From Minutocellus sp. GHC0000111 (Eukaryota): a DNA stretch of 64,000 nt. The position numbers and the translations under genes were made by a program. Under the pieces are notes generated by a model, which saw only the letters and a program-made list of their open reading frames with translations, was not told the DNA's origin and ran no database searches. The stretch covers positions 1,488,001-1,552,000 of the forward strand of contig OZ361258.1 in NCBI GenBank assembly GCA_977018835.1. The letters run 5' to 3'. Below, one piece after another: positions 3,718 to 57,477 of this stretch; position 1 is the first letter of the stretch, and each line of letters opens with the position of its first letter.

Positions 3718-4550
3718 TTACTCCTTCTCAACTGCAGGGCCCAAAACCTCGAGAAGTTCAAGAGTGAAAACAAGGACAGCACCTCCGGGAATCTGAGCCC
3801 CCGCTCCGCGATCGCCATAGCCGAGCTCAGATGGGATGTAAAGCTCCCACTTGCCACCCTCGCGCATGAGCTGCATCGCCTGTGCGTATGGGAGGATAGC
3901 GATTTTGCAAGAGAGAATTATTAAATCGATAATATTCTTTCATATCACATGGAGTTATTGAAATTGCACAGATAAACGAGCTGGGGTTGGTAGATGTATA
4001 CTCACTTCTGTCCAGCCTTTGATAACCTGGTTGGGTGCAAAAGTCAGAGGCTGTCCGCGCTTGTAGGACGAGTCGAATTCGCTTCCATCAATTAATGTGC
4101 CAGAGTAGTGACACTTGCAAGGAGTTGATATCATAGGCGTCTTGCCTGTTCCTGGAGTAATTTCGCGGTAGCGCAAGCCAGATTCGAGCTTGACGACGCC
4201 CTCCTCCTGATCCTTCTTCGCCAGCCACGCGAGACCTTCGGCGGACGTACCAGCGAGGGCAGTCGAAGCCAGGAAGAGGATGCCAACGAAACCAGTGAAG
4301 ATCGTGCGGAACTAAAAATTTGATACATCGGATGAAGAGAAGCACAGGTGAGAAAACAACGATAATGCCGACGGTGAGTGGATAAAATACCGCCCAGTAC
4401 GAGTTGATAGATGTCCGTCCATTTATTTCATGATCCTCCACTTGGAGACACGCATCCTCGTGGGACACCAGAAGTAGCTAGATGCAGGCAAGATCACACA
4501 GAAGGTGCGAAACATAATGCAAACGATGGTGCGGCAGACGGCCGCACCAT
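3718..4550 (-). CDS. Secretory FKBP-type peptidyl-prolyl isomerase (Mip/FkpA-like), 3 exons: 4550-4548 (ATG only), 4311-4006, 3879-3718
   Basis: Spliced translation gives MFRTIFTGFVGILFLASTALA (signal)...SGLRYREI...CHYSGTLIDGSEFDSSYKRGQPLTFAPNQVIKGWTE/AMQLMREGGKWELYIPSELGYGDRGAGAQIPGGAVLVFTLELLEV. GT-AG introns at 4547-4312 and 4005-3880. The first micro-exon is inferred. Confidence 0.85.
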
Positions 4551-4638
4551 CGTTAGTACTACTTTCCGAGTGGGCTCACCATTGTGCTGAAGATTTATCA
4601 CGAGCGAGGAGCGAGGCGCGCCGGCGAGGGCTGTCTCG

Positions 4639-4852
4639 GGGACCGGGACCAGATGCTTCAAAAACGGGATCACGACACACGTGGATGGCGATCGCGAGAC
4701 CAGCCTCGAAGCCCCATGCCCATCCCATTTCATGAAAAACCCGACCAAAACCAAAAGGCCAAGCCATGCCTCGCTTTAGCGATCAGTGGGTCGTCGATCG
4801 GACCCTGTTCGAGTTCGCGACGGGTGGTTCCTGCGCCTGCTGCGGCTTCTCC
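4639..4852 (+). pseudogene. Truncated duplicate of the upstream region and first 29 codons of the gene at 20317
   Basis: Aligns with 20192-20403. ATG 4766 gives MPRFSDQWVVDRTLFEFATGGSCACCGFS, identical in protein, then diverges and stops at ~4885. Confidence 0.85.
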
Positions 4853-5479
4853 GCAACTTGTCTGCTGGCAATTTGTCGTCGCTAGAGAGTGCGATAAAAA
4901 CTGTGATAATCTGATCAGTTTTTGGTGCCATGGACGATCTGTCCGAAGAGGAGGGGGAAGGCGAGTTGAAGGGATGAAATCTCTGCATCTCAGCCTCTCA
5001 TGTATGTAGTGAATAAAAGGATACTAGTAATTGTGCATGCCTTCTTCTTGCGAACAGCTCCGTTGCTCTCTCTTTCTTCTCTTTTTTGGGCGCGATCGAT
5101 CTCTCCTGCTGCTGCTGGCCTCTCCTAATGGGTGTCAGTACTTTTTTGTGAGAAGTGATCGATAGATCTACATGTAGATCTCTATTACTTTTCCCACGCA
5201 TGCAGGCTGCGCGCTGGCCAGGCCTCCTGCTCGCAAGTAACAATGTCCATAGACTTGCTATAGTAGATCTATGTCTGATCACAGCCAGCCGCCCCCCTGG
5301 GGGGTCCTCGGGGCTTTACTAGCAGGAATTCCTAGTTTGAAGAGCAAACGATGCACCTAGGTTACATCTAGCGCGTGCCGTAGACTCTGCCGGTGGTCTT
5401 TCCGTTCGATGATCCAGAAAGATGATCTGATGAGAGGGATGAGGCAGAAATCTGATGATGAGAGAGGGATGAGGAGAGG

Positions 5480-5632
5480 AGGAGCAGACGCCGCCGTGGC
5501 AGACAACAGCTCCATTGCTAGTGCACGCACCTTGCCTGCGTCTTCCGGATTATCAAACGCACCAACTGTTGTTCTGTTCTTTCCACCACATTTGATTCTG
5601 GCATCAAAACTTTGTCGGCCGACCTTTTGCAC
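5480..5632 (-). pseudogene. AP2/ERF-like DNA-binding domain remnant in decayed repeat DNA
   Basis: FDARIKCGGKNRTTVGAFDNPEDAGKVRALA resembles the AP2 pattern. It is flanked by direct repeats GGCAGAAATCTGATGATGAGAGAGGGATGAG at ~5443 and ~5700. Confidence 0.35.
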
Positions 5633-6219
5633 CCCCCACCGGCAAGCTGCTAATGCGGTTCTTGGGGGCAGAATGCTTCTTGACCCTGCCTAGTCTAGAG
5701 GCAGAAATCTGATGATGAGAGAGAGGGATGAGACGGCGGCGTCTCATCCAAAAGGCCCACATGTGACGACGAAAAGACGCTCCATCAGGGAGTGCAATGA
5801 AGCAAGATGGGGCCGGGTGCCCTCCAAGACAGACTGTCGTCACCGCTTGGGGGGGGTGGGCGCGGCCCATCTAGCAATGAGAGGGTGTGAGTTTTTTTTG
5901 TTCCAATGTTATAGGTCGACGAATAAACACATGTTCCACGCTTATTTCCGTCGATTTTGTCGCTGCTTGCTCTCTCTCGCATTATTTTGTAGCAGAAAAA
6001 TCTGCAAAACACAGAGGCGATGCCAACAACTTGAACGGCTGGCTGTTGCAGGCAGATCGTGTTTCAGCCAAAAAGACTGGCAGGCTCGCCAAAACACTCG
6101 CCAAATGGTCCCGTTCTACTAAGTGGTGCAAGCAGGTGCTCCCCGCCGTCGAGTTTGGATTTGACTTACTTTTTAATTTAATAAAAAGGGAGTGCTTCTT
6201 CAGATTCAATGACGCGCTC

Positions 6220-6460
6220 CAGCATGTCAAACAACGGCTCTCCAGCATGTCAAACATCAAATGGTCGCCGAAAGTTCCAGCATTTCAACTCGATCCGCAG
6301 CACATCACAAAACGACCAGCATGTCAATCCGTGTAGCAGCAATCAAACCGCAGCGGCAGCACATCAAACCGCAGCGTCAAGATTGCGCATTTTTTCAATT
6401 GCGTGTCATTTCAGCTTTGTCAAGCAGTGCCGCAAAATCAGCATGTCAAACCTCACCATC
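6220..6460 (+). repeat. Degenerate minisatellite A (core CAGCATGTCAAACC), left flank of the Copia element
   Basis: Recurrent cagcatgtcaaac / cagcacatcaaacc units. The same motif occurs reverse-complemented at 11944-12240. Confidence 0.7.
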
Positions 6461-6643
6461 TGCTAAGAGGTCCTAAAGCTAAGCTAGATAGACATAGCTA
6501 GTAGAGGTTAATAGGACCTACGCAGATGAAAAATGGGCCATCGGAGATGTCGTTGGCCCATGGATCAACGGTCAGGAGAGGGCACTGAGTCAGTGGTCTG
6601 ATCACCGTACGTATGTATACGTACGTATCCCACGGCATCAACA
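6461..6643 (-). repeat. 3' LTR (183 bp, TGTTGATGCC...TCTTAGCA on the minus strand)
   Basis: Matches 12267-12465 with 4 substitutions and 3 small indels. Preceded by the PPT (6654-6644) and followed by GATGG (6460-6456). Confidence 0.92.
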
Positions 6644-6706
6644 CACCCTCGCAGATCAATGACTAGTGCCATTGAATCTACATGTAGAGTCCTAATTGGA
6701 ATCTGT

Positions 6707-9700
6707 CTACATGTAAGCAGACTGGTCGCATGTCGACATGGTAGCGGGCGGGATGGTGCTTTGTAAAATAATCGGCCAAATTTTTTCGCTCCTTTCCGCC
6801 AGCACACACCTGGAATTGTCGTTGCTCTGTGTGCGATCTTGGACCCAGTAGAATCTCATGTCCATAGCCTTAGACCGTCTTTGCTTGACGGTTTTATTGG
6901 CGATTCCAGATGCTGTAGAGTTGTCAACGACGATAGCAGTAGGGGGCTGCGGGTGACCCATTTCTTCTAGTGCTGCCCGGATTGGTGCTGCATCTTTCAT
7001 GTTGTTGAAAAATAGTCCTCCCAATTCGGCTTCAGCGGCTGAGGACATTGCATGCTTGATGACATTGGCATCATTGACGAGGATGGCTCCATTCATTGGT
7101 GGCATGGGATCACTTGAGTCAGGCTGGCGGTGCGGGTCCTTAGGTCGGGAGCTTAGGTAGAAGCACCCTCCGAGCTTGCTTCTTGATTTCGGGGCTGATA
7201 AGTAGGAGGCGTCGCTATGTGCATGTAGGATCATGTCTGACTTGACGCATCGAATGACTGCGTCGGGATGGGTTGCAAGGTAATCTAGAAGCTTCTTGGC
7301 ATCTTGTCGAGTGCGCTCGGTAGCTTTGGATTGTTCCGCTGAGATATGCTATTGAGCGCCGGTAAAATTGTTGAATCAATTGCTCGACCATAGCACAAGG
7401 AGCTGCCCACCACCTGTTGAATTTCGTTGATGCCTTTGGCGTCGAGTGGTGGTGAGTCGTCTTCCGGTTCTGGCAGCTGGGGTCCCGGGCCACACGTCGG
7501 ACGATTCCATCGATATGGCGCATGCTCGGGCCGTGAGGGGCGGTCGTGTTGGAACTTGTGGCGCATCTCCTTGACGTAGTTAGGCATAGATAGATCCACC
7601 CATTTGGCCTCGTAGTTCCACTCGAGTTGAACACCACAATGAAGTCGGCCTTCCCAATCGGTAGTGATCTTATACTTGGAGTTGAGGGCCTGAATGAGAT
7701 GGTCTGCATGCTCTTTCCCGACACACTTTACTCCAAAATCGTCAACGGTTAGGCAAAAGGCAATTGGGCGGGTTTTGTGCCTCCAAAGGCCGGCAGCACG
7801 CTTGCAAGGGAAACAGCCATGGGGTTTGAGATGCTTGACAAGTTGATCGTAGGCTAGGCGCCCTGCCTGGGGTAATCCATGCATTCCGCCATCGATTCTG
7901 ACCAACACTCGACCATTCTTTACTTTGTCGTGGAGGTCGTAGGCTTCCATGACTTCGTCGGGGATGAGAGCTACTGGCGCCCACATCCATTCTGGCTCTG
8001 GCATGGTGCTGTTGAGATGGAAGTCACTGATGTCAATTCCCATGAAACGAGCGTTGTCTGTAGAGATGACGCTGTTGAAAAGTAACTTTGCAGTCAACAT
8101 TTCAGCGGTCGGGGTCGAGACTGCAACAGGGTAATGAATTTTGTCGCCTCCTGCAGTCCATCGAACTCGATTGGGATTTGGTTTATGGGAGCGATAGTCG
8201 GCGACAATGCGGAGGTATGTGGCTTTTTTCCCCCGAGGCAGTTCGGACCAGTGGACGAAAGCCATTGTGTTGGAGGGAATGCTAGCATTGTTTCCAACTC
8301 GGCCGTCCGTTAGCCGTCCAATTTCATCGATGTTTGCTTGAATGAATTGGTCCCTCATGTTCGTTTTGAGGAGGTCGCGGTGTTCAAGCATTGCACCAGC
8401 ATCGGGATGGACGACGGCGTTAGCAAAGTGTTGGAGGTTTGGTAAAGGCGAGAAAGCTGCCATGTTGGCCACGTGGTGGGTGCTACGACGAGATGATGGC
8501 CGTGGGGGAGGGTTCCGATGTGGAATGTGCCCTCGCTGACGGCATGATCGTCGTCGAGGTGGTTTGGCGGTCGATGGTTTGGACTTGCTTGTCGATTTTG
8601 CTGGAGCTGGTAATGTTGGAGTGGCATCGATCGTTGGAGACTTGCGTTTACGTTGCCGACGGGAGGTGGGGGCATTGGAACTTTGATTGGATGTTGCGAC
8701 GGTTGCATCGTCGTCATGACTATCATCATCGTCGCCGTTGGGCTCGTCTGCTGCAGCCAAAGGATTGCAGTAGTTGGAAGAAACTGACGAGCGAGGTGGC
8801 GCGTTGGATCGACGTGATCGACGGTTTTTTGTGGTGGCTGCATCATGTGTGGAGGATTTTGCCACCCTCGGAGGTTGCTGGGGCTGAGGTAACGGAGCGT
8901 TGGGGTTGGAGACAAGGTGACGGCCTACTTCAGTCTCGTTCATCTCTTCTACGTCGTCGTCCTCGTATTTGATTTTGTAGTACTTATGCTTCTTGTCAAA
9001 TGCAACGACTCTACCCTTGTAATTGCGATCTCCAAACACTTTGGCGACGATGGTACCGAGGCGGAATCGTTGGGAGTCGTCATCGTTCTCCAGCACCCTC
9101 GGAGCTGCGGTTGTCTGCATCGTCTCATCAGAGGCGGAGGTGGCAGATTCTGCTGGGGTCGCGCTGTTGAAAATCTCGGAGAGCTTTTCTAAAGCTTGAC
9201 GATGCTCGTCTCGAAGGGGAGCAAGGGGTGCCGCTGGATGTGGATTCTGTAGAGCGTGCAGGAGTTCATGAGCTGCGACCATTGCTGCATCGGCCGACGA
9301 CGTTTTGGGCACCGGAATCACTTTGGGGAGCCAGACGAGTGTGTTGCCAGTGCGTTCCGCCCGAGTTTCCTCAATCCAAACCTTGTAACACCGGTAGTGT
9401 TCCATGGCTGGACCGACATAGTGCCCATCAACGCCATGCGGGGACCAAGAGCCGCGTGCCGAGGGCATCTCGTGAAAGATGACCTTGCATCCGAGGGGGC
9501 CGAGAGGCGTGCGATTGAAATCAAAGCCGCCATTGAGTTGCTCGTGCGCTGATAGTCGAGGGTTGACTCGGGATGCTCTCAGGAAATTGAGGGTCATTAC
9601 CGCCTGCTCCAGCAATTTATCCCACAAGATGAGGGGAAAGTCGGGATCGGTGCCACAGAGAATCGCAATGAAATGATTCTTAAAGGTTCGAATGGCTCGT

Positions 9701-10890
9701 TCGGCCGCATTTCGGCGGTGGGAGTGCGTTGGGGTCAATTGAAAATCTACATCCTTTTCTTCCATGAACTCCTTCAGCTCTCGACTCACTTCATTATCCA
9801 ATCGTTGCAATTTTGGGCGAAATCCTCGCTTGGAGAGGCATTCGAAAATAGTTTGGTGCGCTCGGCGCATTTCCGTTCCCGATCGGCTTTTCATTGGTTC
9901 GGCCAAGATGCTGTTGGAGTCATGGTCATAGGCGACCATTGTGCACTGGTGGCCAGAAATAGACGACACCAAGAAACGGCCGGGCTGATCTGAGAAGATC
10001 TGGCCCGTTGTGTCATGACAATCAGCAAAGACATAGTTGGTGCGCTGTTGGTGTTGTGCCGGGTGGAGATCCTGCTCGGTTTCGTCCACCCCAGGGAGAG
10101 ATTTTGGCGCAGCCATCGACCGTTTGGGCTTGGTCGACCTGATGTTCTTGCGCTGCTGGTCTAAGTGACCTTTAATCATCGGCATCGACTGTGGCATGTG
10201 CTTACGTACAAGCTTTGATGTGAGGCCTGACCAAGATCTATAAAATCCCGCATCGATTGCTTTGCACCAGGTAGATGGCTGAGGACTGCCAGCGCACCAA
10301 TGTAAAAAGGCTACACGTTCCGGAACCGTCTCCTGGGCAATTGCGGCGTTGGCAGCATGTTGGATGACGTTGGGGCCGGGGAGCGGCGACATGGTGGGCG
10401 AGCAATTAAGATCTACCATCCACAATTTCGTTGAGGGGTCTCGTTCACCTTGCAAAATGACGGTGTTGTCCTTGGCGATGACTACCGAATCCTTGTCGAA
10501 AGTGGCAATGCATCCATCGTCACACAGCTGCCCAATCGATAGGAGCGATGACGCCACATTATTGAAAATATAGGCCTTGCTAGCCGATGGGGAAACCCCA
10601 GGGAGGCGAAGCGTGGCCTCGTGGGTGTTCGTCATTGTGCTGTTATCCGGAAGGGTGACGCTGATAGGAATTGCTGTCTGTTGGACGTTGAAAATGGGGC
10701 CGTCGTGCGACAGGCATTGGGGCTTCTGGACAAAATGTCCCGTCGTTCCAGCATCTGCTGTGAGGACGATTGGCTCTTGAGTTGGAGGTTTGCTTTTTGA
10801 CGTAAGAAAAGCTAACGAAGGCGGGGAGGAGGTGGATTCAGACATGCCATCCTCTGTTTTACACTGATTAATGTCCACCGTCCCTCCCGC
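6707..10890 (-). pseudogene. Copia pol (protease, integrase, Tudor-like domain, RT, RNase H), frameshifted near 7340
   Basis: PR ADAGTTGHF; IN FSDQPGRF / QRLDNE / NAAERAIRTFKNHF; RT GMHGLPQAG / CLTVDDFGVK; RH HSDASYLS / SSAAEAELG / IVVDNSTA / KAMDMRFYW. Confidence 0.92.
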
Positions 10891-11867
10891 TCAGTTACGA
10901 CGCAAGCCACCACCGCAAGGATTGCACTTGGTGGCGTTGTCAACGTGGTTGGGCCCTTTGCAAGTGCATTCAAAGCTGGGGTGGTTGGACGAATAGCCGC
11001 ACGTGTGGCAATGATGGCCGCTGGGGAGGATCGACTGCAGTTCCCGCTTCTCCTGGCGGTTGAGGTTAGGACCTTGGCCTGGGAAGTGGCCGGCGCCGTT
11101 CTGCTGGCCACCGCCGCGGTAGCCTCCACTGCCACCAGCATGGTTGCGTCCCTCACGCAGAACGCGGTTCTCGGCCTTGAGTGAAGCTGTTTCTTGGCGA
11201 AGTTTGGCAATGGTATCATCCTTCTCGTTGCTCTTTTTGGCGAGGTTCGCCATCATGGCTTGGTTGGTCTTGAGGGCTTCGGTGGCATCAGCCAAAAGGA
11301 GATCGGCTCGAGAAAGAAATGGATCGTCCGAGGCCGATGAGGCCAAATTCGCGCCATGACATCCTGCCGCTTCGGTGGTGGTGTTGGCCATCTTCTTATC
11401 ACACCAATCGCGGAAGTCCGACTGCATGTTGGCCCACGTGCGTTCGGCCTCCGGTCTGTCGTCCCAGTCCTCGCATGCCTTCTTTGCCAATCAATGAGAA
11501 CCTGCGCACGGAGCGGTAGAACTTGGAGACCTTTTGCTTGTTGGTGAAGGGTTCGCCGGCCGTTTCAAACGCCTTGAAGACTTTGTTGAACATGGCGATG
11601 TGGGTGTCGATGGGTCCCCCGTCGTGCTGCTTCTCGAGCTGCTTCTCTAATTCCTCCTTCTCAGTCTCGTTGAATTTCAAGCAGCGATCGGCAATGCTGT
11701 CGATGATTTGGCGGATGGTGACTGGCTGGAAACCGAGCATGTCATCTTCGAGATGATTGATGTAGACGGCGTCGATCGAGTCGAGGAGGAGATTCTTGAG
11801 CGCCGTGTTGACTTGCTCGTACAAGTTGCAGTGGCCCTTTTCGATGTGATGTCCCCGGATTGCACGA
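10891..11867 (-). pseudogene. Copia gag, N-terminus missing, frameshift near 11490
   Basis: ALKNLLLDSIDAVYINHLEDDMLGF...ACEDWDDRPEAERTWANMQSDF...CHTCGYSSNHPSFEC...H zinc knuckle. Ends at a TGA in frame with pol. Confidence 0.85.
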
Positions 11868-11943
11868 ATGCAGGGGAGATGCATGCATTGTTTGATGGGC
11901 TGGTGCTGCAGGATGTGTTTTTTGACGGGCTGGTGCGGGTGGG

Positions 11944-12240
11944 GAGGTTTGACATGCTGAAGGTTTGCAACATGCTGTGGGCGAGGTTTGATGTGCTGAA
12001 TGTTTGATGCGCTGCTTCGGGTGGTGAGGTTTGATGTGCTGACTGAATGTTTGAGAATGTTTGATGCGCTGCTTCGGGTGTGAGGTTTGACATGCTGAAA
12101 ATGTTGTTTGCAACGTGCTTCGGGCGAGGTTTGATGTGCTGAAGGTTTGACATGCTGAAGGTTTGACTTGACTTGATGCGGGCGAGGTTTGACATGCTGA
12201 AGGTTTGCTGCTGCGGGCGGGTGAGGGCGAGGTTTGACAC
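11944..12240 (-). repeat. Degenerate minisatellite A, opposite orientation (GAGGTTTGACATGCTG units)
   Basis: Many gaggtttgacatgctg / gaggtttgatgtgctg units. These produce the spurious QHVKP-repeat ORF. Confidence 0.8.
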
Positions 12241-12266
12241 TAGGCCTAGCTAGCATGTGCTGATGG

Positions 12267-12465
12267 TGTTGACACCGTGGGATACGTACGTACGTATACA
12301 TACGTACGGTACGTACGGTGATCAGACCACTGACTCAGTGCCCTCTCCTGACCGTTGATCCATGGGCCAACGACATCTCCGATGGCCCATTTTTCATCTA
12401 CGTAGGTCCTATTAACCTCTACTAGCTATATCTATCTAGCTTAGCTTTAGGACCACCTCTTAGCA
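12267..12465 (+). repeat. 5' LTR (199 bp), now on the plus strand
   Basis: TGTTGACACC...TCTTAGCA, preceded by TSD GATGG (12262-12266) and followed by a putative primer site GACCTACGTGATG. Confidence 0.92.
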
Positions 12466-13096
12466 GACCTACGTGATGCATCTTTTCCACCCGTGCTCGC
12501 CCCATTTTGGCTCGCGCCTCACCGACCGGTTTGTGTCTTGGGTTCTCACTCGTCACGCAAGAAAAACCGACACATCTTCAATCGGCCAAAACGACCGTTT
12601 CTTTCGACAATATTGGAACGACGATCCAATCCCTTCCCCGAAAGTCCTGACCAGATCGACCCATCCAGTCGATCACGCTTCTCTGGATCGAACCTGCCTT
12701 CTGTCGATCGACCACACGTCTCGCACGATCGCGTTGGTCTAGATTGGCCACGGCGGGAATGGTGGGGCTGGGGCCAGGATTTGCCGGAGGCACATGTGGT
12801 CGGGGCCGTTACTTTTGGTGGTGTGTTCGGCATCGCTGACGATGAGGCCCAAATGGCCGAGGTTGTGGTCATTGCACCCCCTGCTGGAGTGCTGGCCGCC
12901 GCTTGTTGAAGCTCCTTGAGCGCTTTGGCAACACGCTCGCGTTGGAGAGGTTGTCCTGGGTCATTCATACGTGTGATTAACTTGGTGGGGAGAATCGGCG
13001 CTGCGCCGAGAGGTTGGCCAAAAACTGCGTCGGGATTCATGCTGGTGTTTCAGTCAGCGAAGAAGACAGGCAGCACGGCGGTGTGTTGCTGATCAA

Positions 13097-14115
13097 CAGC
13101 CCATCATCAGCCTGTCAAATAATGCATCCTGCATCAGCCCATCAAATAACACATCCTGCTTCAGCCCATCAAATAACACATCCTGCATCAGCCCGTCAAA
13201 CAATGCATCCTGCATCAGCCCGTCAAATAATGCATCCTGCATCAGCCCAGAGTTGGTCCCATTTTAGGTGAGCCACTCAGCAACATTCGGATTTTCACTA
13301 ACTTCGCTCGCGTTGTCGGACGACGGAAAGACCGATGCTCATCCATTTTTTCTCCCGAACGAAGCTCATCATGGTGACCCCCGCTCCTGGCTGCTACACA
13401 TTTTCAAGGTAAGATATGGGCATTCCCGAGGCTGGCCGATAACATTGCGCTACGTATGCGAAAGTTTCAGCTTGATTGGCATGCTATTGTATGAGAAAAT
13501 ATAAATCAAAACAATCAACCTGTGTTCGAGTACGCGAAAAAGGGCCGCGGATGAGACATGATACCAAGAGAGCCACAGTCGCCCAATCCACCCAGAATTG
13601 CAGAGATACGCGCCCAAGATATGTATGAAAATGATTATGTGGTTGATTGTTGTGTATTTTGTTTGTATCCGCCCCCGAATCGGCCGCCAATGAGAGAAAA
13701 AATTTCGTCCGGCGTCGTCGTTTTTCTCGCGAAACTTTGCCCCCACCAAACACATGTTGTGCTTGGAATTTTTGAGCTGCGCCTTCGATGCCACAGGGTG
13801 TCTAGATGTGTGGCATTTGCTCAGAATTCTCGATTCTCCCATTCATTCCAGAGATTCTTGGGGGCAAAGGTCGGCCGGTCGAGTGGCTCACCTAAAGCTG
13901 GACCTACTCCCCATCAAATAGTGCATCCTGCATCAGCCCTCTATGCGACACCCTCTCCTACAGCCCGTCAAATAATACATCCTGTATCAGCCCGTCAAAT
14001 AGCACATCCTGCATCAGCCCGTCAAATAATGCATCCTGCATTAGCCCGTCAAAAAACAAATCCTCTGCATCAGCCCGTCAAACAACATGTCCTGCTGCAT
14101 CAGCCCGTCAAACAC
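13097..14115 (+). repeat. 27-bp minisatellite B (CATCCTGCATCAGCCCGTCAAATAATG), split by a TIR element; further copies reverse-complemented at 11868-11940
   Basis: Tandem copies at 13097-13249 and 13910-14115. These give HPASARQIM repeats in the spurious ORFs. Confidence 0.9.
13250..13909. mobile_element. 660-bp non-autonomous DNA transposon (MITE-like), 29-bp TIRs, 4-bp TSD CCCA; Sola-like termini
   Basis: TIRs at 13250-13278 and 13881-13909 match at 25/29. CCCA at 13246-13249 and 13910-13913. Removing the element restores a satellite unit. Termini are GAG...CTC. Confidence 0.85.
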
Positions 14116-14599
14116 TCATGCAAAATGCACACACTACAACTTTGACATAGATCTAGACTCTAAAAAATCACACATTCCAGAAAAGAAAAGTTTGTGCATG
14201 TTACAAATGTAATGGGAACTACATGTAGCACGAGGTGCCGTAGCATTTCCTGAGAGAGAAAACTAGCACGAAGTGCCACAGTGTGTGTTGAATCTACATG
14301 TGCCTTCAAAAACCACTTTACGTGTCATGCACACACACAGAAACGCTTTCCGTTGCTTAGATTTTAACAACGCAACGTGCTTATGCTCCCATTCAACTCA
14401 TCGGGGCACCCGGGCCATCTGCTGTAGGGCAACTGTCCACACGAATTTGACTATGTGCCGGAACAAAGGAAATGCTAGCAAACTATCTCTAGTAGCTAGC
14501 ATGCGCGCAGATGGGCACCCCCTCCCTGAGCGTGCGTTAGCCACTAGAACATCATCGCACCAGCACTAAACACGCATTGAACGCGTGCTCAGGCTTTTT

Positions 14600-17500
14600 A
14601 TGCATACGCCGCCGCCCCAGCCAGGCGCGGCCGAGACCGAGAACAGGTCAGCCACAAACAGCCCATGTAGCACGCCACCTGCTGGGGCATCGTACAAATT
14701 TGGTCGCGGGAACAATGATCACCGAAGACGACGACGGCACGAGAGGGAAGAAGGGCGCCGAGAAGATGGCGATGGCTGCGGCATGGCGAGTCGACAGGTT
14801 GACGATGACAGTAGTACTGCGCAGTCGGTTTTGCAGCAGGAGCAGCAGTCGTCAGACAGACAAGTACACTTGCCTTGCGTTGAAGCAAGCCCAAGCAGCA
14901 GCTGCGCATGCGGTGGCGAGATTGCTGGGACATGCGTCGACCGCAGACTCAATAGGAAGGCAGCCGCCGGCGGCGCCGCCGCCGCCGTATCTGGGACCGC
15001 CACTTCTGAGAATGCTCGACGGGGCGGCAGTCCACATGCAGACCCGATGAGGCCGAGAGAGATTGAGCGCGAAGGACAGATATCCGTAAGATCCAGCGTC
15101 GGCGGTGGCGATCATCCGTCCGAGGCCGGAGGAGCCCAAGGTGGCAGTACCGGTACATCTACGTCTCCTGGCAGCCTGCCGTTTCAGGTGACTGCCATGT
15201 CAAGGGACGGTAGCGCACCGTCGAGGGTCCTCAGCCAGCCGGGAGCGTATCGGGTGAGGCCATACTTTCCTTCGGTCCCCACCACGACATTGGCAAGGTC
15301 GTCCGAGTATGTTGGCGAATCTGAACCGATGGACGCGCAGGTGCACGTCGTGGCCGATGCGGAAATTGTGATGGAGGGAGACGGTTCGACGGGTGCTGTC
15401 CTGCCTCCAGATGCGGTATCGGTATGGAGGGGGTCATCACTCGCGTTGGTGTCTGGAAGCCCGTCTGTTTCTGACGATGTGCGGCGGATCAGTGAGGTTA
15501 CTGCTGCGCTCATTAGTAGTGTCTGTGGCGGTGCTGTCAGAGAGGCCGTTCGGTCCTTGTTGGAGACGGTGGTGGAGTCTGGAGAGGCGCAGCAGCAGAG
15601 GGTATTTCCCCATGTAATGACAGTTCTGGTCGGTCCTGCTTCGTCTTCAACATTGCATCAACCAAGAACGATAGAAGCGGCAGTAGATGCCACGGAAGTG
15701 GCAAGTCACGTGGTGCACAAAGCGTCCGTGAGGGAAAAGTTTCACGACGGAGTGGCCTGGATATCCCTTGGGGAGTCCTCTTTGTCTGGGCGACGGACGC
15801 GGCGAAGACTAACGCCGATTGAGTATCGAGATGTACTACTTACGATATCTGAGCATATCACGTTGACGACTTACCAGGGCGATATTGATCATTTGACATC
15901 CGAGCTTTGGAGCTTTGCCTTTGAACAGATCGAGATCGAGGACGAGGACGAGGACGATTCATCCTCGAGGCGAAATGATATTGGCAGATTAAAGGCTTTG
16001 TTTGCACCTTTTATTGTCAGAAAGCACGCCTTGGTGGTTTTGGATGGTGTAGTGCACCGAGAAGACCTGGACCTGTTCTTCTTTGGTCAAGCTGAGTATC
16101 GCGTCCTTGCCACAACAACGTCGGGTGACTTTGATACTTCGGAGAACGTAGGAGCGGGCCAGTCTTCAGCAGCTTGCAATTTTCATGTCATACGTCTTGA
16201 CTTTCCGGGGAGTACATGTACGGACACTTTTCAAGACGAAACTGACGATGAAGATGAAGATGGCCCTTCTCCTTCTGACAACGGCATGCTCGAGGCACGT
16301 CCTGTTGGCGGATCTTTGCACCAGTCAACTTCTGTGGCGGCGATTCCATATGACGTTCCTGCTCCTCCTCGCGCTGTCCTTCATCTTGAGAGAATAGTGT
16401 CGGGTATCGTGAGCTCTCTTCTCAAGGTCCCCGAAGATGACGATGGCGATGGCAGCAGCAAATTAAACGAAGTGGTTGTAATAGGAGGAATGGGAGGCAT
16501 CGGCAAGACAACACAAGCTACTCTTGTTGTGCATAACTACGAAATACTGGAAGCCTTCCGTGGTGGCCTGGCGTGGGTATCGCTTGGAACCACAAAGCTT
16601 TCTCCAATCGATTATCGAGATAAGCTCCTCACCATATGTGCCCACGTATTACTTACGGATGCGAGACTTGCACATGCCGTCCAAAAATCTCTGGAAGGTT
16701 TCATATTTGGGTCATCACCATCCTCGGATCTTGCCAAACTGAAGGCCCTCTTTGCACCATTTATCGTCGAGAAGCGCATCCTTTTGGTCCTTGACAACGT
16801 GTGGCATCACGAGGACCTGGCGCTCTTTTCCTTCGGCACGATATATCAAGGATCCGGTGTATCACCGGCATACCGCATTCTCGCCACCACTCGTCAGCTT
16901 GATCTTTCGCGTAGATCTAATTTCATTCATCTTGATGTCTTGAGCGACTCCGAAGCGCTCCAGCTGCTGGAAAAGATTTCTGGTGTTGCTGGAATAGCAG
17001 ATGATCCCGATGCGACTGATCTCGTCGGTCTCTGTGGAAACATTCCATTGGCTATTGCGTCGACAGGAATGCTTCTCCGAAGCGAAGCATCGAATACAGC
17101 GGTTTCCGCTGACAGAGTAAAGGATTTGGTTTCTAGATGTCGATCTAGAATTCAAAGCGACGGCAAGAACTTCGATAGCAGCGGCTCTACTTGTTCCAGC
17201 ATCTTTGATTTTACCTTCAACATGCACGGAGAGAGCTCGGAGGTCCTTCGAACTTGTTTTGCAATGATATGTAGCTGCTTTACAAACGAGAAAGAAATAC
17301 GTCCCCGTATCCCTTCCGTTGCCGTCTTTGCCCTGGTCACCGACATAATTTCTGGCGATGAGTACCTTTCCAACCAACAAATCTTGACGATTCGAAAAGA
17401 TCTTCAGCTAACGGAAGAGCATATCATCAAGACTTTATTGTCGCTCGACTTCATCGAGGAGGTGGAGGATGCCGATTCGTCAAGTAGTATGCCTATGCTT

Positions 17501-19590
17501 CGAATTCACCACGATCTACAAGCTGACTATGGACTGAAGTGTGCTGCTGAAATTGAGAAGAACATGTGCCATCGTCAAGAGAAGGAGGTCAGTGCTCCAC
17601 GGAACACTTTGCAAGAGCTTCGCTTCCGTCTCGCCGAGTTATTGCTGCATCGGCTAACTTCAAAGGAGATTGAACTGCATGTGTTTCTTATTGTCTTCCT
17701 GCTAAATGAAGGAAGCGCAACAAGTCCACTCGATGATGCTAAGCGTACGAAGTTCGCCGAGCTCTATTTGACCGCCGCCACAAAAGCAATGAGCAGCTTT
17801 GCCTACGAGCAGGCGTTTCAACACGCAACAGGGGGCACCCGCCTGTTGCTTCCGGCCGAATCGTCGGAGACAAATATTACTTCCTTGCTGCTTCGCAAGC
17901 AAACATCGAATTTGGACTTGTGGATAAATCTTTTGTCAACTTTGGCAGAATCCTTATACTACACAGGTGATCATGCTACGGCGCAAAAGTACTGCAGGGA
18001 GGTGATATCCTGTGGAGAAATTCCGCTTCGAAAACAGATGCGCATGTACAAAATCTTGCTGGATTCTTTGAATGCCCAGGATCGTCCGGCTGAAGCCGAA
18101 GCTCTTTGCCTTGGTCTTTTGGAAAAGCTTGGGTGTCGATTTGCCTCTGGCAAGCGCCGGAGAGCATTTGTCACTGTGACTGGAATAATAAAAACCAAGA
18201 TGACTCTGGAGAAAACTTTACAGAGGATATCAAGGCAGCCTGTACTAGTTGATGAAACGAACGTTTGGTTATTGGCATCGCTGGATCAACTTCTTGCCTT
18301 CATGTATCACACGCAATCTGATCTCTTGCCGATCGCCGTTTTTCGGGGAATAAAATACTTGGCGGATTGGGGAATCACTGAAGTGGCACCAACGCTTGTC
18401 ACGTCAGTCGGCATTATCTTTTCAGGTGTTTTGGGTGACTTCAAGGCTGGCATGCTCTGTGCGAAAACGGCGATTGAGCTACTCGAGAAAGTTGACAACG
18501 CCAAGCGGGCTAGAGCTAAAACGCTTTTCTGTATCGGCTGGTTGCTCATGCACTATCAGGTGCCAGAGGAAGAGTGTAAAAAGTTACTGCTTGAAGCACA
18601 TGAAGTTGGCCTGTTGAGTGGCGACGTTGACCACGCAGCTTGGGCGGCAAATGGTTACCTTGAGATGTGTTTTTACACTGGAAACTCGCTCGTGTCCCTT
18701 GATAAGGAATTTGGCGTGTATTTGAGGCAACTGAAGGAGCTTGGCACTGACGCAGCATGTCAAAATATGACAATGATGCACCAAGCGATACGGAACATTA
18801 TGGGTCGAGACGAAGGCGACCATTCCATCCTCAAGGGGGCTATCTTTGACGCCGTTAAGGCCGAGGAGGACATGAAGCAACCGATTGCAGGTGCTTCTAA
18901 GACGACCACCACCACTTACACAAATATGAATCGTCTGAAAATTGAAGTGGCGTTTTGGGCTGGCGATTATTCTTCGGTGCTGCAGATCGCCTCAGAATGC
19001 AGAGCTCATAAAGGATCCTTCGAAAAAGAATTAATCGGAGTCTACTCTGTCGCAGGGCCATTGAATTTTCATATCTCACTCGCCGCGTTCGCTACTTACA
19101 GCAAAACGAAGGAAAAGAGGCATAAGAAGCTCGCGTATCATTTTGCAAAAAAGATCAAAGCTCTTTCTTCTCAAGGAGTGAGTTCATGATGTAGGAATTC
19201 CTACAATGCATGTCAGCAGTGTATTTTTTGTTTTAACCTCTGAATCATCCTCACAGTCGTTCGGTCACATCCTTTCAAATGAATGCTCGCTCGCAGGATC
19301 CCAACGTGATTCATTTCAACTATATCCTTTGTGCAGAGAAAGATTTGATCAAGAAGCGCTATGTGCAAGCCATCGAACACTACGAATTGGCCGCTAATCG
19401 ATGTCAAGAGACAAGTTGTACGAACTACGGAGCACTGACCCAAGAACGCTTGGGCGACTGCTACCAAAAGCAGGGCCTTATCCTCGACGCTCAGAAGCAT
19501 TACAAGACAGCCATTGAGTTGTATGACGAGTGGGGCGCTCGACATTGCTCAGCAAGACTTCGACCGTTGCTTTTGCTCCGTGGTAGATAG
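14600..19590 (+). CDS. NLR-like STAND protein: degenerate NB-ARC + intact NB-ARC + TPR-like helical region; intron 19178-19296
   Basis: P-loop GMGGIGKTT, FRGGLAWVSLG, ILLVLDNVW, ILATTR, CGNIPLAI, IHHDL (MHD-like). An upstream copy reads FHDGVAWISLG / LVVLDGV / YRVLATT. GGA|gtgagt...cag|GAT splices in frame to a final exon. Confidence 0.85.
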
Positions 19591-21321: not shown

Positions 21322-21739
21322 TGCATAAAAGCGTAGATAAAAATGAAGATTAGATCGAGAGCAAGCCGATCACCATATCATGCTAATCGTGCGTCTGCGT
21401 TTGTGTTTGTGAAGATCTCCAACATTTCGCGAAATCAACTCTCAGCATCCCCAATCCAGGTAGAAATGCTAAAGCCATATATCGGTGCAACACATCCGCC
21501 ACTTACTGCGCTCTTTTTTTATCAATATCAATCATTTGGAACCAATCTGGAACCACATTTGAAGTTCCACGGTGACGCACGCCCGACGCTCCACTCCCGA
21601 CGCTCTTCTGTTCACATGTAAATATTTATTGCATAGCCAAAAATCACACCATATCCCCCATCAGATTGTCCAAAAACAAAGCCTCCACCATTCGGCTTCG
21701 AATCAATTATTTGTTCTCATCTTTCGATTCATCCAGTAT

Positions 21740-52212: not shown

Positions 52213-52991
52213 CGTGATGATGGTACCACCTCTGACTCGAACGGAGTTGCAGAGTGAGTTTCATGGCACACAGCCCCATCTCGTCTTGTTTCGCCGGTCG
52301 GATGAAGCGTTTTTCGGCAGAAGACGAACACGTCACGAAGAAACCCACCAAAACCCAATCTCGTTCGTCACCCATTCTTTGACCGTCCAACACCATGGTG
52401 GTCCGTCGGCGTTGCGCCGGCGTGTAACTATATTTTCGTACCAAATACGCATTCATTATCATGTTTGGATATAGTTGAAGCTTACTGTATCCTCAGATTG
52501 GCCTCCGCTGCGTATCAACGCCACGAACCATCGGCCTACTTTTCCTCCATCTGTCGGCCGTTCGTTTCTCTGGGGTGGTGCCATTGCTCCGTCTTTGTGC
52601 TCGTCGTGCTCCCGTTGTGATGCCCCAGACCCTCTGGTACTTTCCCACGTTGTTGTTGATGATAAACTGCCGGGATTGCGCCGCACCCCCCGTATGACCG
52701 ACTCTCGCTGATCCCGACCGATCGCATCCCCACTCGACCTCCCGGAATTCCGACAATAATTTTGTGCGCCCGAGGAGAGACAGACAGTGTTGGGATAAGT
52801 TTATGCAACAATCAACCCGACAAAGGGACTTTTTGGTCTGGGAGATAAATGGGTGAGTTAAAAAGGACGTGATGTGTTTGTTTGGGTGTACTATTTGCTT
52901 TTTTGCTCAATCGCGAGATGCTGTTTGTAAAAGTTGGATTATGCAATTCATTTGCTGTTGTGTAGTAGCAGTGCAATTTCATTTTCTAATT

Positions 52992-54634
52992 TTATGCATG
53001 CCCTGCTCCCATCTCTACATCCTCATCTCCATCGGTGGCCATCATGATCATTTGTTGGCGCTTGTCATCAGTTTCTGCTTTAACAGCTTCGGTCCTTGTC
53101 CTTTTCCTTGTTCTTGCCACCCGAGAGTTTCGCTCCCGCCTCTCCTCGACCTTTGGATTGGATGCCCTCTCCTCAGCCTTGAACTGCGCCGTCTGTTGGG
53201 CCTCATGTCCCTTGACGCCCTGAGTCCGACGATCTTCCTTAACGCCCTCTTGGTGGGCTCGCTCTACAAACGATTCGTCGAGCCAATAGATGCCGCCGCC
53301 CCATCCATTCTTCACTAGCCAAATGTGTTGGTCCAAGATGTGATCTTCGAGTAAGTGCCACTTGGGCGTCATGCTAATGCCGATTGCCCGTGCTTGCTTG
53401 AGGGCACTTGCAATCAATGCTTCAAGCTCTCTCACAGCCTTCTTTGCCTCATCATCCCATTTCATGTACCATTTCAGAAACCTGGAATGTGTTGCGTCAA
53501 GAGTGTGGAGCAAATTAGAGCAAGCTTTGCAGAGCTCTTTGATGTCATCATCCGTCATGCCATCTTCCTCGCGATTGTGCTCTAGGAGAGTTCCTTTGGT
53601 GGAGGTGTTATGGTGGATGAACTCTATTGTCCTTGGTTTCTTCTCTCTTGTTGTTGCCATCAGAAATGTTAATAGACAAAGCTCTCCAGCATTCTGCCAG
53701 CACTGCCCTTATTTTACCTGAGTCGGCCGCCTCAATGCCGGCCTTTTTCAGGAAATGGAAGTGAGGGGCATCGTCATCCTCGGCATCATCGACAGCTCCC
53801 ATCTCTGGCTCGCCATCACCGTGCTTCTGACGATTCTTCTCAAAGTGCTGCTGCATGTGTGCTTCATCATGTGTAGCGTCCTCTCTTGCAATGTCAGCTT
53901 CGTCCTCATAACAGGGCACATAGTCCTCGTCTTCGTCGTCATCGTCCTCACTGATCTCGCCGGCCTCCGTCGTGGTCAGGGTGCCCACCGTCCCAACATC
54001 GTCGTCATTGTCCCACCCATCGTCCTGGCCATTGCACCCACCAGGGAACTTCTGGGCCTCGAGCAACATCTGCCTGTTGATTTCGTAGTCCATCGCCGCA
54101 CATCCCACCGATATATGTGGTGCGACCGACTTGAGGAATGCATCACATGCCTTCGTCAAATTGAGCCGCGGCGGCGGCATTTCGAGGCGAAATTGTTGCT
54201 CGACCGTGACCATCCATGTCGAAAGCCATCCATCCATCATCATGGAGAGCGTCGGCTGCACGAGGATTGATAGAACCGAGGCGAACAAATATTCTCTTTT
54301 TGTATGGGGTTCGCTGAACGTCGTCGGCAAGGCAGTGTCTTGATACCATTTCATCCCATCCATTCTGGTTGTCTGTCCTCACAAAAAACACGTCGCAGTC
54401 TTCGTGTTTCTTCTTCTTCAAACCCAAGATGCCCGCAGTGCACATGACGGCGCCGTACATGATGGGACTGCATCCCAACACATTCATCAAGGAGTCGTTG
54501 TTGTTGCCGATGAAATTGTAGTAATGAAGTTCCTTTCTGCGAAGACGGACGAGTAGTTCAGCCAGGGCGTCCTGCACCGCAACTCTGTCTGCGGTGTTGA
54601 CCGCGGGATTGCGGCCGTTATTTTTTTTGCTCAT
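52992..54634 (-). pseudogene. RAG1/Transib/Chapaev-like transposase remnant: frameshifted (~54205, ~53665) and internally deleted (~53583)
   Basis: C-terminal GISMTPKWHLLEDHILDQ...GIYWLDESFVERAHQEG matches the TPKxHxxxxH...ExxExxH signature. The N-terminal part plus acidic tract is present, but the DD core is not visible. Confidence 0.65.
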
Positions 54635-55108
54635 GGAGAATTATGGATCGAGACCAACGGGAATATCACCAGGATGTCGGGAGTACCTGGTTGGTCTCGT
54701 GCCGTAATTCTCCCACACCAGCGCGAGATATCGCCTTCGTTCTGCACGTAGCGGCGGCAATTTGAATTTTTGCCGCCATGGTGGCTCGCGTTGGGCGCGC
54801 CGGTCGGTTGCTTCGCGCGCCGGCCGGCCACCGAAAGTGCGACCAAAAGTATGCGAGTCATCCGGCTGGCAGATGGTGCTGTGGGCATGGCGTTGACTTG
54901 AAAGCAGCGAGCAGCGCAGGTGCAACGGCCAGACGTGTCTCATTTTTTGCGCCTTGCTTCCGAACTTTACCCGGGTGTTTCGGGGGGATTCCTGGGTAAA
55001 GTTTGGCTCGCATGTTTGCTGCGAGAAGACTTCAAGATTTTCCCGCGATGCCAAGCACCAACTGAAAGCGCATCTTGGCTGCGAGCCAAAATAAAAAACA
55101 GAAGTCTT
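54635..55108. other. Array of adjacent inverted repeats (hairpins) filling the divergent spacer
   Basis: Stems: 54635-58/54690-713 (21/24 bp), 54753-60/54770-77, 54780-85/54827-32, 54960-75/54991-55006, 55007-12/55020-25, and 55026-33/55101-08 with inner 55050-55/55074-79. Confidence 0.8.
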
Positions 55109-55116
55109 TTGACACC

Positions 55117-57477
55117 ATGGCCGCCGCTACTACTGCTGCTACCGCCGCCACGAACGCCACCGCCGGCCTTCGCCGCACGGCAGTCCCAAGGGCACCACCC
55201 GAGTTATCATCGTACAAGACCCGATTCAATGCATATCTTCAGCATATCGGTCTTCCCTTTGTCGACGACTTGACGCCCGAAGACGTCGCATCGCCCGGCG
55301 ACATCGAATCAATTATGTGCTCTTGGGCCGAGTACATGTCGACGAACCCTCCGAGGTACATGAACAACCGGGACAAGCTCCTCAAGGCTGACGGCGTCGG
55401 CAACGGCTTCGGCCTCATCAAGGAGTACCTGAAGGACCGGTTCGGCCGCCACGTCGACTGGACCGACGAGACCTGGTTCACCCTCTCCAAGGGCGCGCTC
55501 GTCAAGAAGCTGGAGAGAGACAGCGTCCGTGGCACATCTGGTGTCGACGAAGTACCCGGCAAGATCGGCATCGTTCGCCTCAACCCCGATGCTGGTGTTA
55601 TTGAAGGACACGACGGTGTCAGCACCAGTCCATTTGCCGACGATGTTCCCGACATGGTCACCATCAATCGCAAGCTACTGAAAACCAGCAAGCTCGGCGA
55701 CAAGCACCAGCGACGCCTTGCTCTCAACTTGACATATGCCGCCGATGGCCGGTCCGGGGAGGTGAAATATCTCAACTACCAGGGCATGACATATGATCCC
55801 GTCGGTAATTGTGCTGCTGCTGACTGGAAGGACTTGAAGAATGGCACGACCAGGCCGACTACCTTCTGTACAGATTATGACCGGTGGGAGACTTGTGTGT
55901 TTGATGCCCTTGGTGACCACTGGAGCGTCGATGGTGGCCTCTCTCGTACCTGCAACTCCTCTGGCAATATAGGTTTTCTCCAGGCCTTTGTTGTACCGAT
56001 GTGCCAGGCTCGAAGCGATTCCTGGACTTCCAAGACCCTCACCGAAACCTTGCGAGATGATCTGCCGGATTCAATACGGGACAGCATATCTGGTCGAAGC
56101 ATGCGATACGGCGGCACTACCCACCTTCACGAAGATCCGTCGGTGAATCATCCAGAGCTCACGGCACGATCAGGCCACGCTCCTGCTGATAACACCAGGC
56201 ACTACGTGCTATCTCGGCGGGCGATGCAACATGTGCCAATGAGGTCTCTTGCTGGCCATCCCTCTCCTCGGAAGTCCCACCGTCCTCCTCGGCTCATTGC
56301 CATCAGCACTTTGCCTGACGACATGGCTCTTTTGGATCGGTTTGCAGACAAATTATATCCAATGACAATGCCTGATTTCAAGGCTGGAGGGAGGCTACGG
56401 CAGCTGGTACGGGAGGTGCTGGCCACCAACATTATGAATTTTTCGACGAAGCTGTCTTTTCTTGGAGTTGCAGGCCCTGCCGTTCGTCGGATGATGAATG
56501 TGGGGGACGAGCTCGGTATTGATCTGTCTCAATTGAAGGGGTGGTCAAGGAAGGTGGCAGATGATTTCAAGGCCATCAATGCACCGTATTCATCCGCTGA
56601 GGAGGAGCTTGCTACTGTGGTAGCTGAAAACAATCGTTTAGTATCAGATTTGCGGAAGGAGATTGCCGATTTGAAGGCTTTGGCAGCAACCAACGCAAGA
56701 ACAATATGTCACCTTGAGACTCAGCTACAAAAATCGGATGCAAGGGCGCTAAATGGAACATCGGTGCCATTGATTGCTTCTGGTGGTGTTGATTCGGCGG
56801 TTGCTGGTACCAGTAGACCTGCCGGTGGCACCATCCGACGAAGAGAGCCATCCCCACCGCGATCCCCTGGCCGAAACGTGCGGCAGCGCACCGCTGGAGG
56901 TTCTGGCATTATCGGCACCGCAATATCTGCCATTGCAGTATCGCCGGTTGCCATAGCAAGGAGAATGGTTGGAGGAGCGCCACCGCTACCGACGGCTCTT
57001 CGGCCTCCACCGCTACCAACGACGGAGCAGTTGTCAACTGTCAGCAGCGCTGGGGGCAAAAAGAAGAATAAGTGGCCGCTCATGAGCGAAATAGTAATAG
57101 AATTGGCTCGATCTGGAAAGCTGAAGTCAGGGTCGTCGCATGAATCCATGCCTCCGCCGCTGGCAATACTTCCCAGGGCTTTTGATCGCAATGAAAAGAC
57201 AAAATATAAGTTGGCAATGCGTGTGGTTGATGCAGCTGTCACAAAAGATCAGGATGATGTGTTTAGAGCAGCCGAGATCGATGAGGCCGAACTAGTGGCA
57301 AAAGGAAAGGCTTTAGATCTTGAAGTCCGTCGGTGGTTGGCAAGCAAGATGAATAAGAATCTCACCAAAAGCAGGTTGACAGCGCAGGTGCTAGGAGTGG
57401 GAGCGAATGCCCAGAAATTACCAGACAATGCATGGCCGAGGTCCAATGGGGGTCTTTTTGGGATGTTTCGTAAATAA
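55117..57477 (+). CDS. Crypton-like tyrosine recombinase, intact intronless ORF
   Basis: Catalytic-order residues R (DGRSGEV), K (WKDLKNG), xxxR (SGRSMRYGG), H (RSGH), Y (NTRHY), followed by a helical domain, a coiled coil and a low-complexity region. Confidence 0.8.
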   Translation: MAAATTAATAATNATAGLRRTAVPRAPPELSSYKTRFNAYLQHIGLPFVDDLTPEDVASPGDIESIMCSWAEYMSTNPPRYMNNRDKLLKADGVGNGFGLIKEYLKDRFGRHVDWTDETWFTLSKGALVKKLERDSVRGTSGVDEVPGKIGIVRLNPDAGVIEGHDGVSTSPFADDVPDMVTINRKLLKTSKLGDKHQRRLALNLTYAADGRSGEVKYLNYQGMTYDPVGNCAAADWKDLKNGTTRPTTFCTDYDRWETCVFDALGDHWSVDGGLSRTCNSSGNIGFLQAFVVPMCQARSDSWTSKTLTETLRDDLPDSIRDSISGRSMRYGGTTHLHEDPSVNHPELTARSGHAPADNTRHYVLSRRAMQHVPMRSLAGHPSPRKSHRPPRLIAISTLPDDMALLDRFADKLYPMTMPDFKAGGRLRQLVREVLATNIMNFSTKLSFLGVAGPAVRRMMNVGDELGIDLSQLKGWSRKVADDFKAINAPYSSAEEELATVVAENNRLVSDLRKEIADLKALAATNARTICHLETQLQKSDARALNGTSVPLIASGGVDSAVAGTSRPAGGTIRRREPSPPRSPGRNVRQRTAGGSGIIGTAISAIAVSPVAIARRMVGGAPPLPTALRPPPLPTTEQLSTVSSAGGKKKNKWPLMSEIVIELARSGKLKSGSSHESMPPPLAILPRAFDRNEKTKYKLAMRVVDAAVTKDQDDVFRAAEIDEAELVAKGKALDLEVRRWLASKMNKNLTKSRLTAQVLGVGANAQKLPDNAWPRSNGGLFGMFRK

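Follow-up and report, generated by a model that had tools for sequence, protein, structure and literature searches.

A TpA hypermutation signature in a Copia retrotransposon and other repeat families of a diatom

The Copia element and its rearranged 5' end

The retroelement at 6461..12465 of the window analysed here (64,000 nucleotides of Minutocellus sp. GHC0000111, contig OZ361258.1, positions 1,488,001 to 1,552,000) is a Copia long terminal repeat (LTR) retrotransposon of a diatom, and its A:T pairs have been converted to G:C preferentially where they form TpA dinucleotides. Its domains are read on the minus strand in the order gag, protease, integrase, Tudor, reverse transcriptase (RT) and RNase H, in a frame broken by frameshifts. 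The 3' LTR (6461..6643, minus strand) is bounded by TG...CA on that strand and preceded by a purine-rich tract at about 6644-6652. The pol region (6700..10890, minus strand), comprising protease, integrase, a Tudor-like domain, RT and RNase H, is frameshifted near 7345 and within its RNase H part, and the C-terminal part of gag lies at 10891..11867 (minus strand), with a frameshift near 11490. Pol can be aligned end to end with intact relatives of 1350-1400 amino acids, which matches the Ty1/copia order of protease, integrase, RT and RNase H, and its RT gives a weak match to RVT_2 (E 7e-4; the RVT_2 matches fall under the curated cut-off). The domain motifs within pol are presumably those of a Copia polyprotein. 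The PTM/DIR17-like Tudor domain (PF21743, E 6e-12 in Pfam), at about 8920-9060 between integrase and RT, is found in the window family and its close relatives and is absent in more distant ones; a role in targeting the element to chromatin is conceivable. PF21743 is also matched, weakly, by a host SNF2 gene at 57474. A scan of viral contigs returned no relative.

In a correction to the original prediction, made from the letters of the window, the LTRs are inverted and not direct, through a rearrangement at the 5' end. Both show TG...CA termini and both bear GATGG at their outer end, a target-site duplication read from the sequence (3' copy at 6456..6460, minus strand; 5' copy at 12262..12266, plus strand). 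The 5' LTR (12267..12465, plus strand) is inverted with respect to the coding region, together with the start of the 5' leader (12466..12695, plus strand), and is preceded by an inverted host flank of 27-bp and 17-bp satellite units (11870..12261, plus strand). The remaining leader and the N-terminal part of gag, frameshifted, occupy 12723..13084 (minus strand, from translation). We compared these junctions with Logan contigs of four public runs, including X1, X2, X5 and X9. Loose contig ends lie at 12267. In other copies the leader runs on from 12695 into 13084 downwards, and 12723 is joined straight to 11861 (both in X1 and X9), which is the normal order. X2 and X5 join 6460 to 12257, at most 4 bases from the expected empty site, and the 17-bp satellite array resumes outside the 3' LTR, at about 6190-6455. 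Our reading is that the element would be one ordinary insertion in a satellite array, missing from some haplotypes, with its 5' end rearranged afterwards. Within gag, the stretch 11870-13084 thus holds the 5' LTR, a portion of the leader and the host satellite upstream of it in inverted orientation, an arrangement that two inversions could have produced and that is either real or an assembly error. A new class of Copia elements with inverted repeats was considered and is ruled out by the target-site duplication and the joints. Like the CoDi elements of diatoms, as described in the available part of PMC2806351, the element combines the Ty1/copia order (PR-IN-RT-RH) with TG...CA LTRs, a short target-site duplication and filled and empty haplotypes; unlike them, the window copy is frameshifted, has an inverted instead of a direct LTR pair and carries a Tudor-like insert in pol.

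Tyrosine loss and the mutational spectrum of the family

The original prediction listed 13 motifs of the element in which residues normally conserved in Copia proteins, mostly tyrosines, had been replaced. All 13 are present at the expected place, with codons one transition away from a TpA-containing codon, and in the 12 from pol and RNase H the intact relatives P0001, P0149 and P0003 have Tyr, Thr or Val at those positions; for the gag motif AAGCHG, an ancestral Tyr is putative. These relatives keep the tyrosines, instead of already carrying cysteine or histidine. An unbiased count over the 39 columns that are Tyr in all three relatives yields 19 Tyr, 11 His and 9 Cys in the window, whereas other conserved residues are retained there almost throughout (Phe 26/26, Trp 14/14, Lys 34/34, Asn 27/27, Cys 10/10, Gly 53/54, His 28/29 and Asp 44/46). 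Over the whole of the window pol, 38 of 175 scorable TpA targets have changed. The LTR pair (6461-6643 vs 12267-12465) differs, as had been claimed, at two sites that read TA/CA, or TA/TG on the opposite strand, and at one CA/TG doublet, whose ancestry is ambiguous, as the prediction itself had said; three indels are added to these, and zero other substitutions.

The analysis was extended to 17 sister proteins, namely 15 listed of the 113 members of the P0008 cluster and two close copies from the P0001 cluster, which are encoded on contigs of 0.3-3.3 Mb, several of whose lengths recur across families, and likely come from the same assembly as the window. Their conserved-Tyr columns hold 195 Tyr, 88 Cys, 65 His, 2 Asn and 0 Arg (n=350). 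Amino-acid differences were projected on the window codons over 1275 positions, with gap edges and low-identity stretches masked and ancestral states set by a majority rule and a three-relative rule; 18 differences requiring other than a single step were set aside, as were three ambiguous sites. The resulting 373 one-step events comprise 312 A:T>G:C changes, 35 C:G>T:A changes and 26 transversions, with transversions making up just 16 of the 328 changes at A:T pairs. Per site and copy, A:T>G:C changes reach 246/1739 (14.1%) at TpA and 66/10543 (0.6%) elsewhere (171/1535 and 61/10607 when polarised by majority only), so that the excess anticipated at TpA amounts to 22- to 26-fold odds over other A:T>G:C changes. 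TpA sites take 246 of the 312 events (79%), or up to 279 (89%) if possible hidden TpA are counted, and the remainder is at background level; 33 of the 66 non-TpA events may fall on TpA that silent changes in the window have masked, and such hidden pairs are seen in the contigs in five paired rows (8846, 10184, 10558, 10716 and 11012). The direction is, as predicted, the opposite of that of fungal repeat-induced point mutation (RIP), with C:G>T:A at 0.29% against 14% for A:T>G:C at TpA. As RIP is described in the available text of PMC12543289, both processes place transitions in a biased dinucleotide context on either strand of repeated DNA, act once it has inserted and may affect flanks, but RIP is a C-to-T process that needs the cytosine methyltransferases Rid1 or Dim2, whereas the changes seen here are A:T>G:C and destroy TpA. 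C>T changes at CpG are raised 3-fold in the Copia family (23/3105 vs 22/9116), which fits CG methylation as in the CoDi elements of Phaeodactylum.

The context of the changes is graded and extends beyond the dinucleotide (R, purine; Y, pyrimidine). RTAY sites are changed in 131/461 cases (28%, 24-33), YTAY in 84/533 (16%), RTAR in 30/593 (5%) and YTAR in 1/152 (0.7%), with closely similar rates on the two strands (0.30 and 0.26 for RTAY, 0.16 and 0.15 for YTAY). AA is changed at 0.65%, 22-fold less than TA, and GA is the coldest context (8/4009). Tyr never becomes Arg (0/414, vs 17.6 expected under two independent hits), which indicates that the first hit destroys the target, and at 21 of the 41 Tyr sites some copies have Cys while others have His. 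The sharing of derived alleles does not exceed chance (242 vs 270 under independence), and the heavily mutated copies are thus without visible daughter lineages. The TA load varies from 3% to 33% per copy. Outside this group, 149 other relatives carry Cys in 3 and His in 31 of 3286 conserved-Tyr observations, a set that is biased to intact sequences, mostly on short contigs, and has no bearing on taxonomic range. One candidate, the more distant relative P0093, has replaced 4 of 19 conserved tyrosines, two by Cys and two by His, and possibly represents another genome with the same process.

These observations bear on where the changes arose. An origin before integration could lie in RNA A-to-I editing or in RT error, and ADAR-type editing favours U before A (as stated in the accessible text of 10.64898/2026.01.13.699255); but editing would give A>G in the sense strand only, against the equal hits on both strands, and a pre-integration origin is at odds with the differences between the two LTRs of a single insertion and with the presence of the signature in satellite-adjacent DNA and in a family without sign of RT (described below). 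CpG decay read backwards is compatible with the LTR doublet and with some satellite sites, but the intact relatives set the ancestral state as TA and arginine is never seen. Assembly errors, finally, are contradicted by the contigs of other runs, which show alternative TG/CA states at the same sites. Explanations of this kind are largely refuted, and we give them a probability close to nil. Strand equality, differing LTRs and the family without sign of RT together argue for a process that acts on DNA, after insertion.

The context gradient bears on a further alternative, in which targeting would be the same but the changes would stem from a Y-family (Pol eta-like) polymerase that fills gaps inaccurately and places G across from the T of TA while methylated or damaged transposon DNA is being repaired. 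According to the available part of PMC6423074, Pol eta produces A mutations at WA motifs (W, A or T), TA among them, in non-canonical mismatch repair and somatic hypermutation of immunoglobulin genes. CoDi elements are CG-methylated in Phaeodactylum (PMC9998398, in the part available), and the raised CpG decay of the Copia family implies that T:G mismatches able to trigger repair exist. WA, however, covers AA, which is hit so much less than TA here, and Pol eta is strand-biased while the strands are equal in this family; the scarcity of transversions at A:T and the absence of clustering of the repair-patch type also speak against this route, which we consider rather unlikely.

Reach of the signature in repeats and host DNA

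The comparison with the contigs provides a view of the same process at the DNA level, with 40 rows listed for the element (113 further) and 18 for single-copy DNA (203 further). The contigs of the four runs have TA where the window reads TG or CA, and TG or CA states at other sites. Among the rows listed, 23/40 differences in the element are TA-type, against 1/18 in single-copy DNA, where 8 are transversions (X2 and X5 being a near-perfect match to the window). Most of the public runs that contain window DNA are metagenomes of sponge or marine origin. RNA-library contigs of X1 and X9, from two studies, stop in the same flank at the LTR end (6461) and share TA changes such as those at 9796 and 10184, which suggests that one other copy dominates these libraries.

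Depletion of the preferred target tells a similar story. The observed/expected ratio of TAY/RTA stands at 0.40 for the element, against 0.72-0.76 for genes and for the intact open reading frame (ORF) at 55117..57477 discussed below, and the left flank (4500..6460, no strand assigned) is, at 0.36, as TAY-poor as the element. The signal is clear in TAY/RTA, whereas the drop in bulk TpA is mild (0.44 in the element vs 0.58-0.63 in genes), plain TpA observed/expected per kilobase is too noisy for marking out the element, and the T3-A1 codon-boundary ratio does not separate it (0.48) from host genes (0.39-0.90).

A second, unrelated repeat family is represented by a deleted copy at 52900..54700 (minus strand), with a TAY/RTA ratio of 0.41 and the same TAY signature on 13-28% of targets across copies. 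Its degenerate ORFs fall in clusters of 30, 14, 57, 23 and 9 members, with no Pfam match and no sign of RT, and its TAY rates (32/137, 38/134 and 15/111) stand against 0.2-1.1% at non-TA adenines. The window copy is internally deleted, the longest relative seen having 920 residues (P0357), and a PKWHLLEDH...ESFVERAH motif is reminiscent of the RNase H folds of DNA transposases.

The third family is a young multicopy one, with an intact ORF in the window (55117..57477, plus strand, 786 residues, no Pfam match) that resembles a tyrosine-recombinase (Crypton-like) element, whence its earlier, putative label, YR. It forms a cluster of 72 members, one protein being identical on 10 contigs. In 14 listed members and the window copy, TAY is changed in 10/686 cases, against 2/6822 elsewhere, with six TA hits in a single copy. 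The prediction that the neighbours of the retrotransposon keep their tyrosines is borne out, in that the window YR copy has 0/92 TA targets changed and the CLPTM1 gene (34860-36938) keeps 21/23 conserved tyrosines, but YR is a multicopy family and not a host gene. The process would so appear to reach different transposon classes, with young copies mostly escaping even 600 bp from a mutated element. Three repeat families are affected (Copia, the second family and, lightly, YR), and host genes are spared in a small host sample.

The sparing of host DNA is relevant to the possibility that a genome-wide TpA bias merely becomes visible in dead transposons under relaxed selection. TpA is low throughout the window (0.58-0.63 in genes), CLPTM1 does have one Tyr>Cys, and the single-copy sample is small, with 18 rows listed. 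Nonetheless, a single one of these 18 differences is TA-type, the coding PPR repeats show TA-type mismatches at only 8/54 and 5/64, and genes show no selective TAY loss (0.72-0.76, vs 0.44-0.50 for TAR). Copy loads, moreover, range from 3% to 33% irrespective of other divergence, and in Bigelowiella natans, an alga with a comparable process, the background is AT-biased (10.64898/2026.01.13.699255, accessible text). With the reservation that the host sample is small, we regard a genome-wide bias as very unlikely.

Several other features of the window can be set beside these families. The 27-bp and 17-bp satellites form arrays at 13040-13250, 13920-14125, 11870-12250 and 6190-6455, and their units alternate between TA, TG and CA at some sites and between CG, TG and CA at others. 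TpA loss and CpG decay may both act on them; since several of the variants are equally compatible with CpG decay, the satellites were set aside as evidence. Further high-copy repeats, with high summed depth, lie at 13300-13700 and 14430-14560, and most of their differences are of other types than TA. The host DNA at 14570-19189 and 28855-32847 contains two long ORFs, both encoding NB-ARC and AAA_16 (STAND-type) ATPase domains, and a 388-residue ORF at 20632-21324, which matches nothing in Pfam, occurs in X1 and X5 as a divergent allele or paralogue, with 27-28 differences, within near-identical DNA. The named neighbours of CLPTM1 are diatoms, and its nearest named clusters are those of Minutocellus polymorphus (representative 78% identical) and Extubocellulus spinifer (62%), which makes a Cymatosiraceae-like diatom the most likely host.

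Mechanism and relation to known systems

That TpA hypermutation of transposons is a real pattern is well supported by the comparisons made here, which show its direction and context, its strand symmetry, the independence of the copies, the need for an intact TpA, the hitting of three families and the sparing of single-copy DNA. The targeted TpA mutator envisaged by the original prediction is thereby upheld in part, including its restriction to transposon-type DNA, and repetition may not be a sufficient trigger. Although all the affected families are multicopy, the 72-member YR cluster, close by a mutated element, is mostly unhit, in contrast also to what RIP would lead one to expect of a highly repeated family; either repetition alone is not sufficient or it needs time.

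The explanation we favour, at a probability of about 0.5, is that each transposon copy gathers its own A:T>G:C changes at intact TpA, likely after insertion, through a host adenine deaminase acting in transposon-marked DNA. The enzyme would deaminate the adenine of TA, mostly in TAY and on both strands, to hypoxanthine, which replication would fix as G, and the hits would pile up singly across many cell divisions, as the lack of strand-coordinated clusters suggests. Deaminases typically leave transitions of almost a single kind, at a single base and in a single context, and such a pattern here suggests base deamination, with adenine to hypoxanthine as the simplest route. The candidate enzyme would have a TadA/ADAT fold, and targeting would proceed via a silencing mark such as CG methylation, not mere repetition. 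Elements would presumably end up crippled by tyrosine loss, and a defence role might be read from this loss of conserved residues and from the lack of daughter lineages.

Several points weigh against this explanation or narrow it. The spectrum was derived from proteins, in which silent and stop-creating changes are invisible, and certain sites may be near saturation or partly inherited, such as GMHG, where His is the commonest state among the sister copies shown, and IRC, where Tyr is kept in 0/9 of them. Across 15 copies, TA load shows next to no correlation with other divergence (Spearman 0.05). Clusters coordinated by strand, the expected trace of a deaminase working on long single-stranded tracts, were not seen among the events scored (same-strand neighbours 0.44 vs 0.52 +/- 0.035), nor was clear spatial clustering (spacing 0.325 vs 0.292 +/- 0.024). 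Other repeats at 13.1-14.6 kb are TA-type at only 5/22 differences and the D3 repeat pair at 1/7, and most full-length YR copies, like that of the window, are unhit. The RNA-library contigs of X1 and X9 bear TA changes of their own, and mutated copies may hence not be silent. As to defence, a by-product of silent chromatin would look alike, and frameshifts break copies too.

Sequence likewise does not distinguish A from T as the damaged base, which leads to a further alternative: the thymine of TA might be modified, for instance as a 5-hydroxymethyl- or 5-formyluracil chromatin mark on repeats, and mispair with G, the motif on the other strand being R-T*-A(-Y). Oxidised thymine marks do occur on repeats of dinoflagellates and kinetoplastids, and 5-formyluracil mispairs. 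We know of no such mark in diatoms, however, and 5-formyluracil also yields transversions, which are rare in the Copia spectrum. A modified thymine hence seems distinctly unlikely.

For the favoured adenine deaminase, a candidate chemistry is the natural A-to-I deamination of DNA by the tRNA-editing enzyme ADAT2/3 of amphioxus. In the available part of PMC10354150, this enzyme prefers GAA, TCG and hairpin loops and also deaminates C; the GAA preference of its ADAT2 does not correspond to TAY, GA being the coldest context in the diatom.

Novelty must be judged against Bigelowiella natans, where the same TpA signature has been measured before. In the accessible text of the preprint by Mettrop et al. 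(10.64898/2026.01.13.699255), A:T>G:C changes account for 230 of the 231 mutations found in two viral inserts, all of them at TpA and about 1000-fold over background; the de novo rate is about 6e-7 in inserts of nucleocytoplasmic large DNA viruses (NCLDV) as well as of virophages, the process is active in only some lines, TpA-depleted coding sequences include transposase and RT domains, and A-deamination by an ADAT2-like protein is proposed, unproven. TpA hypermutation is thus not categorically new, and the diatom pattern matches that of B. natans, three of whose features recur here (near-pure A:T>G:C change, TpA confinement and locality to mobile DNA). Both give TpG/CpA, are local to foreign DNA, spare host genes and are uneven among lines or copies. 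They differ in host, a stramenopile diatom against a rhizarian alga, and in target, multicopy transposons against single-copy viral inserts. The graded RTAY > YTAY > RTAR > YTAR context has no equivalent in the preprint's main text, which contains no diatoms, no trinucleotides and not the word retrotransposon, although its supplement may hold context data. A literature search, whose coverage left out most subscription papers, returned no paper on TpA hypermutation in diatoms.

A bolder version of the favoured explanation, possible but doubtful in our view, would have diatoms possess a dedicated natural enzyme that deaminates DNA adenine, prefers RTAY and is directed to silenced transposons, whatever their class, to kill them by tyrosine erasure, as an adenine counterpart of RIP and APOBEC shared with Bigelowiella across the SAR group (stramenopiles, alveolates and Rhizaria). 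If this were true, the RTAY deaminase would be a natural template for adenine base editors (ABE). TadA and ABE enzymes may prefer YA or YAC, a preference for which no supporting passage was found in reviews. In any event, the four-base context offers a substrate for testing candidate enzymes. For diatom repeats, dates drawn from LTR pairs and analyses of GC content or codons can be misleading, since in a copy whose empty site persists in other samples roughly one in five scorable TA targets is already changed. As far as we have found, publications describe a mutator that turns A:T into G:C specifically at TpA for one rhizarian alga and for viral inserts; its signature in three transposon families of a diatom suggests that mobile DNA is subject to such a process more widely among eukaryotes.

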